From: Amphiscolops sp. MND2022
Taxonomy: Eukaryota
Assembly: GCA_964187785.1 (NCBI GenBank)
Contig: OZ076409.1
Location: 11,038,001 to 11,102,000, forward strand
DNA length: 64,000 nucleotides
Reading direction: 5' to 3'
Under the pieces are notes generated by a model. That model did no database searches and had not been told where the DNA came from. It was given only the letters and a program-made list of their open reading frames with translations. Shown piece after piece: positions 44,513 to 47,474 of this stretch. Every line of letters begins with the position of its first letter. Position 1 is the stretch's first letter. Position numbers and translations under genes: made by a program.

Positions 44513-46204
44513 GTTTTTTGACTCATCATTAGGATATGAGGATTGGGAGCCCGATGATGTCGGTTTGGTCTGAGGTTTCTGAGCCTTTGGATTGGGCTTA
44601 TTCTCAGTTGAGTCCTCAGGTCTAGTGCGTTTGGGTTTAAGATGTGCACCAGCACCTTGCCAACATCGTTCTTCCGGGTGGTTCTTTTTGCCACAAGTAC
44701 CACACTCCGGGTATGTTTTCTTCTGCGTCGACTTGCCTTGTTGGGCATCTTTTTCTTTTTTCTTTTTCAGTTTTTCGCAGTCCTTGACCATGTGGCCCTT
44801 TTCCTTGCAGTAATTGCAAGTGATATCGGACAGTTGCCCTGTGGACAGAGGAGTTTTAGGTTTTGTAGTCGAGGAGGTCATTGTGGCCATTGGTAGGTCA
44901 TCTGATTCCTCGAGGGCGTTAAGCTCCAATTCTCTCTCCAAATGAGCAACGATCTCATCGTATGAGCCATTTTCTAACCTGGCCATGTTGACGGACCGCT
45001 TCAGTTTTGGTGGCAGTTTTGCGTAGAGCAAGCTGTCAATCATTTTCTGTGCATTGTCACCAAATGACTTCTCGGCTCCCTGGTTTAGTTCTTCGAGAAA
45101 ATCAGGCAGCTTCATCGTATTGGGATCGAAGACTAGACGGTGCCATTTATGTTTGGCAGTCGCTTGTGACTCGGGTTTGACGTATTTCCGTCTAAAGATG
45201 ACTAGTACGTCCTCTAGAGTTTGTCGGTTGCTTGAGCTGATATTTCTGAACGTCTGAAGAGTATTCTTCCTCAATAAAGAGTGGAAGTGATTGATCTTCA
45301 TTTGCTCAGTCATTTCTGGCTGCATCTTGATCATAGTGTGAAATAGGTCTTCGAACAGCTCGAATTTCTCACTTTTGCCATCGAATGTCATGGTATTTGA
45401 GTTGACTGGGCGTATGGTGAATTGTTGGGCTGTCGGTCTATTTTGCATTGTAGTCAAGACGTCTGCCAGTCGGGTGATGGGGTCGGAGTCAGCAGCCGTA
45501 GCGATTCTCTCTTGTGCTGGGATCGTCGTGTCGAGGTTGATGTCCTCAAAGGACCTGTCGAGATGATTTCGGGATGAGATGCGTCCTGTGAGAAACTCAG
45601 GAACTGGATTTGGAGATTCGTTGTCTCCTGTCACCATGTCATGAACATTTCGATGTGATGTGTCTTCATGTTCACTATTAAGAGTATTTTTAGTCTTCAC
45701 GTTGTACTGAACTTCGGGGTAACTTTCCGGTCTCTCATCAGATCTCTCCCACCTCATTCTAGTCTCTTGTCCTGAACCGGCCATAATAACGTTTTGAATC
45801 TGGGGCAAAACCTGGTTATTGATGGCATCATTTATGGCTCTCTGGATCTGAGAACTGACACTGTTCATCACCTCATCCATCTCTCTAGATATTCTAGAGT
45901 TCAATTCACTTGACAGCTTATTGATCTCAGCTTGAGAGTCTATGCTTGCTGAATTTTGTCCGTAATTAGCACTGGTCCCAACTCCAAGGTTTCTATGATC
46001 AGAATGGGAATTCATTACTTCGCTTTCCAAGTTATTACTTTTAATATTTTCCTGTCTCCTAATAGAAGTTCCATCGAGACTTCTGTCCCTTTCTGTATCA
46101 TTAAAGTGGTTTTCACCTAACATTATGTCAAGGTTTTCAATGTCAGAGAGAATTTCTAATTCTCTAGATTTCCTTGCTTTCTTTTGCTTTCTCGTGGTAG
46201 GCAT
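44510..46204 (-). CDS. gag: Gag, 564 aa, two CCHC zinc knuckles
   Basis: CNYCKEKGHMVKDC and CGTCGKKNHPEERC; capsid-like FDGKSEKF region. ATG lies 568 nt inside the 5' LTR. Confidence 0.93.
   Translation of the reverse strand: MPTTRKQKKARKSRELEILSDIENLDIMLGENHFNDTERDRSLDGTSIRRQENIKSNNLESEVMNSHSDHRNLGVGTSANYGQNSASIDSQAEINKLSSELNSRISREMDEVMNSVSSQIQRAINDAINNQVLPQIQNVIMAGSGQETRMRWERSDERPESYPEVQYNVKTKNTLNSEHEDTSHRNVHDMVTGDNESPNPVPEFLTGRISSRNHLDRSFEDINLDTTIPAQERIATAADSDPITRLADVLTTMQNRPTAQQFTIRPVNSNTMTFDGKSEKFELFEDLFHTMIKMQPEMTEQMKINHFHSLLRKNTLQTFRNISSSNRQTLEDVLVIFRRKYVKPESQATAKHKWHRLVFDPNTMKLPDFLEELNQGAEKSFGDNAQKMIDSLLYAKLPPKLKRSVNMARLENGSYDEIVAHLERELELNALEESDDLPMATMTSSTTKPKTPLSTGQLSDITCNYCKEKGHMVKDCEKLKKKKEKDAQQGKSTQKKTYPECGTCGKKNHPEERCWQGAGAHLKPKRTRPEDSTENKPNPKAQKPQTKPTSSGSQSSYPNDESKN
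44513..44519 (-). promoter_or_regulatory. -1 ribosomal frameshift slippery heptamer A AAA AAC
   Basis: Immediately precedes the gag TAA; the -1 frame is open into pol. Confidence 0.8.
45625..45636 (-). promoter_or_regulatory. Primer-binding-site-like TGGTGACAGGAG, inside the gag reading frame
   Basis: TGG directly abuts the LTR terminal CA. The first 7 nt match a tRNA-Trp-type 3' end; primer identity is uncertain. Confidence 0.65.
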
Positions 46205-47474
46205 TAAGACAGAACCGGGTTGAATAATTCAATTATCAAAACCGGAAAACTGACAAAAGTCGTTGTATTAATTCAATCTTTATCAAAGTAAAGGTATGGG
46301 ATTAGTGATCTTTTTTACAGGAATATAGCTATATATACTCCTAAAAAGATGACACTCACATTCCACAAATTCTTTGATCAAGAAAACATCATATAACTAT
46401 GGCCTCAACGGGTCATGTGACAAGCGTTATTACAGCATCGGGTAGGGTGTTCAACACTTCAAAGCAGATATTTTAGGGTGATGTCCCGATAGGGAAAATT
46501 CCTAATTTCAGGGTAGTCCTTAGGAATTCAACATCAAAAGAATGATATTTAAAAGGGTACACAAGCAGCACCTTCAAGTGTCATGTTTATAAACATCATC
46601 AACATTATCCTGTCAACAAATACCAATGTCTATTGAAGGAATGCAAAAGGCATCTCTTCGGAATGTGCTTGTGACACGCGTTACCACGCGCCTATTATTC
46701 AACGTGAGTAGGAACTAGATTAAATATTACATGATCAGTTCTGCTTAAAATAATACAGCATTATTAAAATAACACTTTCTGACAATGCCGAAAATGGACA
46801 AATCCGTTTTATTAATACAGCACTATAATAAAAGAGGGTAAAAGCCTTATTCGGCTTTTGAGTGAGTACTAGGTTTATTAAGCTCGTTGCGCGGCATTGG
46901 GGCTTTCTTTCATTATTAAGAGTACATTTACAGTAATTTACGATTAGTACACCCAATTAACACACATACAGGCTATTCCAACGAAGTGGCCGGAATCGGC
47001 CGTTTGACTAAAAGGCACAATTATTGAGTCAATTGGCCATACTCGGCCATTACATAATCAGAGTGGTATGACTTATAGAAAAGGAGCAACGTGATTGGCT
47101 AAGGAGTTGAGCTCAAGTGACGTCTCCGGAAAAGGAGTTTCGTTCACTTGAACTCGTTTCCTTTCTACTGCACAGCTACATTGTCACGTATTACGTTTAC
47201 AATAGCAAAGCGCCTTTCAATCTCTTGAAGTTACAAATACACTATTTGAATCTTCAAATGTGACTTTTAACAGACTAATTTTACATGTGCAAGTATATAT
47301 ATATCAAAACTAACAACATTAACAAACATATCATGTATTGAATAACAAAACAGCATGAAAGTTCTAAGTTTGTAAATTATCCCGATTAATAAATGGGTAA
47401 TGTTCCGGGTACGAATTCCTGTCCAGTTGCCGACGTTGTCACACTCGTACCGTCACAGGCGGCAGCCTGCGACA
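45637..47474 (-). repeat. 5' LTR (1838 bp)
   Basis: Direct repeat of 31159-32998. Confidence 0.97.
46330..46337 (-). promoter_or_regulatory. Putative LTR TATA box
   Basis: TATATATA ~126 nt upstream of the gag ATG. The same spacing (~124 nt) occurs in the divergent solo LTR (56271-56278). Confidence 0.55.

Follow-up and report, generated by a model that had tools for sequence, protein, structure and literature searches.

Long terminal repeats (LTRs) are usually taken as non-coding control DNA, and annotation tools look for gag in the internal region of an element. The window analysed here (the whole stretch of 64,000 nt) contains a 16.3-kb Ty3/gypsy element bounded by LTRs that were recovered as direct repeats in a self-search of the window (Table 1), and it raises the question of where the gag gene of such an element begins. 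We consider it very probable that in this Ty3/gypsy clade the first 110-193 codons of gag belong to the 5' LTR, that the frame stays open across the LTR end and a tRNA-Leu primer binding site (PBS), and that the LTR part, conserved as protein, is translated as an N-terminal extension of Gag.

Table 1. Coordinates in the window of the element, its coding regions and signals, and of a solo LTR of a sister family.
Feature	Position	Strand	Remarks
5' LTR	45637..47474	-	1838 nt, TGTC..GACA; 99.3% identical to the 3' LTR; same ends in all copies
3' LTR	31159..32998	-	1840 nt, TG..CA
Target-site duplication CATGC, right	47475..47479	+	matches left copy
Target-site duplication CATGC, left	31154..31158	+	matches right copy
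gag ORF, 564 aa	44510..46204	-	capsid-like helical part at about residues 272-431; zinc knuckles past 460
LTR-coded gag, codons 1-189 and first base of codon 190	45637..46204	-	
PBS, 12 nt, codes (M)VTG	45625..45636	-	complementary to tRNA-Leu(CAG) 3' end plus CCA
pol: protease, RT, RNase H, integrase	39213..44522	-	
3' ORF, 335 codons stop to stop	32910..33917	-	last 29 codons inside the 3' LTR
Antisense gene, several frames, apparently intron-containing	34701..38987	+	end part resembles hAT transposase C-terminus (lead only)
TATA-like box TATATATA	46330..46337	-	133 nt above gag ATG
ATG-free leader	46205..46329	-	probable transcription start at ~46300-46310
GATAAA, then U-rich stretch	46279..46284	-	weak candidate poly(A) signal; kept in family-A subfamilies
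Predicted long helix, residues 85-143	45776..45952	-	AlphaFold2
Solo LTR, sister family	55621..57110	-	target-site duplication GACAG; decayed gag start at 56147

The pol gene of the window copy carries a single in-frame stop (42498-42500), and the end of gag, AAAAAAC TAA (44510-44522, minus strand), overlaps the pol frame and is a candidate -1 frameshift site. The insertion target of the element was a repeat (26189-26667 and 47475-47954), and the window also contains a duplicated block at 22228-25658 and 27213-30623, with a spacing of ~4.98 kb and 92-99% identity.

In the first-pass annotation the start codon of gag was assigned to 46204, within the 5' LTR. This placement held: the codon lies 568 nt from the LTR end, which corresponds to 189 codons plus one nucleotide. 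As it had also proposed, the Met190 codon is divided as A|TG between the final base of the LTR and the TG of the PBS, TGGTGACAGGAG, which reads MVTG. In the window element no ATG occurs between TATATATA and the gag ATG, and the context of the first AUG is weak in five of 11 elements, the window's among them. The copy of the gag start in the 3' LTR (ATG 31726) runs for 189 codons and then through 17 codons of flanking DNA; of the 11 elements, 10 were examined for this, and in each the 3' copy stays open and ends 3-52 codons into host DNA. The same layout had been claimed for the solo LTR, and here the claim stood in part. This is a real LTR with GACAG on both flanks, TATATA 131 nt above its ATG at 56147 and a homologous N-terminus (tblastn, 44% over 43 aa, E 2e-5), but its frame, which opens 527 nt inside, is broken by a stop at codon 7 and by frameshifts. 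In its intact relatives the ATG is 550 nt inside, and the A|TG MVTG junction is present wherever internal DNA follows.

The region between U3 and the gag ATG was analysed for signs of a transcribed leader. Out-of-frame ATGs are nearly absent just before gag: summed over the 11 elements, the last 120 nt of the leader side hold one where 16.9 would be expected (p=3e-6, counting as independent 11 elements of which several are related), and five control triplets composed of the letters of ATG drop by at most half in the same 120 nt. Subfamilies whose U3 regions are only ~55% identical nevertheless have in common the TATA box, a U-rich stretch and, 75-80 nt above the ATG, a hexamer resembling GATAAA. 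Depending on the family, TATA[AT]A is found 74-284 nt above the ATG; in families E078 and E089, ATGs sit between this match and gag. In the window element no AATAAA follows the TATA box, and the other families have none at a common position. Five LTRs (L015, L021, L025, L027 and L029) are mosaics that combine the U3 and leader of one subfamily with the gag part of another, their identity jumping from ~55% to 94-98% at -63/-66 or at -6/-2 from the ATG; such breakpoints would be expected from template switching near R or the gag start. Based on the TATA-like box and the ATG-free 120 nt, the cap would lie at the position given in Table 1. If GATAAA is the poly(A) signal, R may be short and end above the ATG. 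U5 would then comprise ~620 nt, ~90% of it coding, with a strong-stop DNA of ~670 nt.

These signals also bear on a different reading, which accepts a coding LTR part but has transcription begin far up in U3, near the CCAAT at 47098, with R ending at an AATAAA (46879 or 46813), a U5 of more than 1 kb and an AUG reached by splicing or reinitiation. It would accommodate the location of the only AATAAA hexamers of the window LTR, all above the TATA box, and the far-upstream CCAAT present in both LTR types of the window. However, such an RNA would have to cope with the 26 upstream ATGs of the window LTR, none of which lies within 156 nt of the gag ATG; U3 cannot be aligned between subfamilies, yet the TATA box and GATAAA persist, and the mosaic LTRs change parent close to the ATG. 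We therefore judge this reading improbable, and favour a start just below the TATA box.

The gag start within the LTR is real, conserved and selected as protein. Using the comparison that the first-pass annotation had suggested as a check, dN/dS in the LTR-coded part was 0.10-0.25 in 10 usable pairs (upper bootstrap limit at most 0.41; NG86 ignores transition bias, true values being somewhat higher). These pairs were drawn from families A, B, C and E; from an initial 15, one was skipped for a copy that was not intact and four had saturated dS in the LTR part. In internal gag, dN/dS was 0.02-0.10 in six pairs, and 0.29 and 0.58 in two others. A control comparing 5' with 3' LTRs gave a pN/pS of 0.56, not 1, on 34 changes (11 synonymous and 23 nonsynonymous; E072 was dropped for an indel), indicating that the absolute dN/dS values are probably biased low; the contrast between shared and singleton variants, given next, stands. 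Being too small, this control was replaced by a test of singleton against shared variants in 23 collinear family-A copies of 33 taken. Variants present in at least four copies comprised 42 synonymous and 29 nonsynonymous changes and no stops, and singletons comprised 49 synonymous and 138 nonsynonymous changes and nine stops (p=4e-7); the singletons are mostly post-insertion decay. In nucleotide alignments made with no protein guide, a third-position excess was seen in the LTR-coded part in six of seven pairs. Indels were multiples of three in 5/5 cases in this part versus 43/155 in U3 and leader (p=0.002). AlphaFold2, run on 39 sequences (mean pLDDT 58), predicted a mostly disordered, basic N-terminus with one helix (pLDDT 80-92 at residues 91-140). 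A search of the ESM Atlas with residues 1-189 returned no usable match, a result that bears on neither absence nor novelty.

This selection rejects a Gag that starts only at Met190. According to that reading, the LTR segment would be a conserved non-coding signal and its open frame incidental, and several features are in line with it: the context of the junction ATG is strong (G at +4 in 11/11, a purine at -3 in some), MVTG forms the first residues of some gene models in databases, and the capsid lies wholly within the internal region. As the sole mode, it is contradicted by the codon-specific purifying selection, the in-frame indels and the lack of shared stops. Furthermore, several AUGs lie between 46204 and Met190, so that scanning would not reach the latter. 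The outcome named beforehand as fatal to an in-LTR start, translation from Met190 with no selection upstream, is thus rejected, and we consider a Met190-only Gag highly improbable.

The suggestion that the in-LTR start is a trait of the clade was borne out, since gag starts within the LTR in 11/11 full-length elements with paired LTRs. The host genome (1.07 Gb) was searched with gag residues 1-200; 150 of 21,343 candidates were scored, all of them 79-100% identical. At the 30 best gag loci the 3' end of the LTR is fixed, and it is followed by the PBS in 26 and by unrelated flanking DNA in four. Exact junction patterns occur 4,019 + 3,430 = 7,449 times genome-wide (reversed controls, 0 and 1), which is a lower bound on such junctions, solo LTRs coming on top. 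In a separate set consisting of the first 30 PBS-anchored matches on contig C1, chosen regardless of gag with a pattern that left out the family of the window element, the MVTG frame was open for 100 codons or more upstream at 24/30 loci. In the other frames at these loci this was so in 0/60, with a maximum of 43, and the long open frame before MVTG is therefore not due to chance. The 30 loci form 13 DNA clusters, with N-termini such as MPSTRRQ, MGNKRSR, MTTRSQK, MSTTRSQ, MPERSSK and MSVESTK.

Ten of these loci were selected for intact frames and family spread, and 20 kb around each was analysed. All ten turned out to be complete elements, 15.6-16.6 kb long, with LTRs that measure 1510-2513 nt and with 5-bp target-site duplications. 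Counting the window element, gag begins within the LTR in 11/11, at a distance of 331-580 nt (110-193 codons) from the LTR end. Overall element length is steady at 15.6-16.6 kb despite LTRs that vary from 1.5 to 2.5 kb. The RT sequences are 53-81% identical to that of the window element (eight elements compared); the RT tree included 9/11 elements, the other two having no RT stretch with at most one stop. That the repeats are a local duplication or have mis-set borders, with the gag start included by chance, is refuted and virtually impossible, despite the lack in family A of a clear polypurine tract at the 3' repeat (four purines in the last 12 nt), by identical ends across copies with different flanks, 5-bp target-site duplications in 11/11, a solo LTR with its own duplication and a PBS directly after the terminal CA.

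The residue before the internal MVTG is D, H, N or Y in 146/146 proteins retrieved (D in 135, mostly from one family); all four residues have an xAC codon, which an LTR ending in ACA requires. Two proteins without a close match in the host genome, P0126 and P0155, carry the H-MVTG mark 223 and 126 residues in, respectively, which suggests that the layout may exist in other species too. Both contain tandem junction-like motifs (HVVTG, HTMLAG, HMMTE and HMVTG), as if the junction of LTR end and PBS had been duplicated. A search of the genome with P0126 and P0155 yielded no outgroup of conventional layout, only members of the LTR-gag clade (best matches 30-40% and 37-49%).

The 12-nt PBS pairs with tRNA-Leu(CAG), whose genes end in CCCACTCCTGTCA. 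A 22-nt pattern of the tRNA end had 739 matches in the genome, and ARAGORN called Leu(CAG) at two of the five loci scanned. Matches to the tRNA-Leu 3' end also form a long array with ~296-bp spacing (G000, contig C8, ~35.60-35.66 Mb). On contig C11 of the same genome (~50.410-50.435 Mb), tandem ~2-kb units consist of a family-B LTR and a short internal part (L042, L044, L046, L047, L050-L052 and L054-L056); in this array the PBS matches tRNA-Leu over 18 nt, compared with 12 nt in the coding elements.

At the opposite border, which the first-pass annotation had not noted as lying in an open frame, the frame reading ..G/A|V/L-S/T is the longest open one up to the start of the 3' LTR (49-340 codons) and continues for 11-34 codons into it, in 11/11 elements; a third-position excess was seen in this frame in the closer pairs. 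The polypurine tract is weak, with 4-10 purines in the last 12 nt among the 11 elements and four in that of the window; in family A there is no purine tract at this border, and the 3' ORF is found there instead. Since this frame crosses into the 3' LTR, the integrase ends, the PBS and the plus-strand primer site all lie in open frames. Open frames at both LTR ends could have resulted from borders that moved into genes; growth of the frame out of U5 is another possible origin of the layout. A conserved hairpin at the first bases of the LTR was considered and rejected, being significant in just 2/11 elements (z -3.5 and -3.3; the others, -1.7 to +1.0); in the window LTR (47435-47474, minus strand) the first 24 nt form a 10-bp hairpin with z -3.3.

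The 3' ORF stands head to head with the antisense gene, with ~800 bp between them. This gene changes frame at similar points in two families (the window and L105:6972-9441), as introns would give, and introns in antisense orientation would survive reverse transcription. A C2H2/BED-like motif is visible in it, and its look-alikes in the Atlas carry the hAT dimerisation family (score 0.91-0.93, with recognition below threshold). Searching Pfam at E<=0.1 returned no family for the 3' ORF or for the five antisense frames.

These data suggest the following scheme. Pol II would start ~30 nt below the TATA box, leaving a ~100-nt leader before the first AUG (46204), at which the ribosome would initiate. 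Translation would proceed through a basic disordered N-terminus with one predicted helix, MVTG, the capsid and the zinc knuckles. Within the particle, the tRNA-Leu(CAG) primer would anneal to 12 nt of the coding region, and priming would yield a minus-strand strong-stop DNA of the length given above, copying the gag start into both LTRs. On one RNA, translation of the PBS and binding of the primer would be mutually exclusive.

With such a layout, standard tools would miss a fifth to a third of Gag, or would cut it at MVTG. The clade shows that an integrase end and a primer site can be located far inside a coding frame, and that this holds between lineages whose RT identity falls to 53%; reverse transcription likely tolerates a strong-stop DNA ~7 times the length of that of Ty1. 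The competition between translation and primer loading can thereby be put to the test in an animal element. The genome has at least 7,449 junctions, with solo LTRs in addition, and at such numbers read-out of an LTR-borne gene start could matter to the host; single copies decay neutrally, and this neutral singleton spectrum argues against a general post-insertion role for the gag-start copies in 3' LTRs. A broader proposal, which we regard as rather unlikely, is that the LTR borders moved into genes at both ends and that every 3' or solo LTR is a portable promoter, leader and open-ended gene start of 110-193 codons. Thousands of them could give rise to Gag fragments that have the helix but no capsid and restrain the spread of the family, in the manner of Ty1 p22, or could become joined to host DNA and seed new genes, and template switching at the gag start would swap promoters between subfamilies.

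With respect to known systems, the Pfam order of pol (gag-asp_proteas, RVT_1, RT_RNaseH, Integrase_H2C2, rve) is that of Ty3/gypsy (Metaviridae). The TG..CA LTRs with 5-bp target-site duplications (11/11) are within the 4-6-bp range of this family, and the tRNA primer site lies directly after the 5' LTR, as in Metaviridae. The top Foldseek rows for the capsid fold were PNMA2, HERV-K Gag and dArc1, all weak and none at E<=0.001. Ty3 RT was matched at E 2e-19 in a PDB sequence search, in which foamy-virus RTs and an 'Enzymatic polyprotein' had equal or higher scores. Ty1/copia (Pseudoviridae) was rejected because the integrase does not precede RT. Bel/Pao (Belpaoviridae) was rejected as well: DUF1758 and Peptidase_A17, the markers of the Pao-type peptidase and RNase H, were absent at E<=0.1, and gag gave only a sub-threshold DUF1759.

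Frames that run into LTRs have precedents. HIV/SIV nef, MMTV sag and the CRM integrase tail are 3' frames that extend into U3; these overlap U3 only, whereas the window clade has gag over the other LTR end too. For some families, ORFs that begin within the LTR are annotated in Repbase. In Ty1, gag has room for about a dozen LTR codons; the overlap described here is ~10 times larger, its 110-193 codons including a predicted folded helix. A selected open frame that runs from an in-LTR ATG through the PBS is the Ty1-type layout. The comparison with Ty1 made at the outset was right in kind: Ty1 gag also begins in the 5' LTR (PMC3522557), and its PBS lies inside GAG, at RNA nt 94-104 (PMC4974528). 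The Ty1 PBS is thus ~95 nt from the RNA start, compared with ~670 nt from the probable cap in the window element. Cer1 and Ty3 resemble the window clade in their PR-RT-RH-IN pol and in having a capsid with zinc knuckles. Cer1 Gag is likewise extended by a large N-terminal part, and the element has a 3' ORF; with an LTR of 492 bp and a 5' UTR that still includes positions 957 and 1175, its gag starts outside the LTR (PMC10309623). In Ty3, a 5' PBS segment adjoins the 5' UTR at nt 121-128 (PMC4974528). The OTA/Tat elements are likewise large members of Ty3/gypsy and carry additional 3' ORFs in both orientations, some of them transposase-related; they differ in having plant instead of animal hosts, and LTR-coded gag is not mentioned for them in the portion consulted (PMC6317226). 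No precedent for a long in-LTR gag was found in the accessible parts of PMC6317226, PMC5408684, PMC4402516, PMC11302176 and PMC8282616, nor by narrow phrase searches of the literature outside Repbase, GyDB and subscription journals. Ty1 represents another superfamily and uses the initiator Met tRNA as primer, whereas the window element is Ty3/gypsy and uses tRNA-Leu; its gag-start layout works like that of Ty1, but the element itself belongs to Ty3/gypsy.
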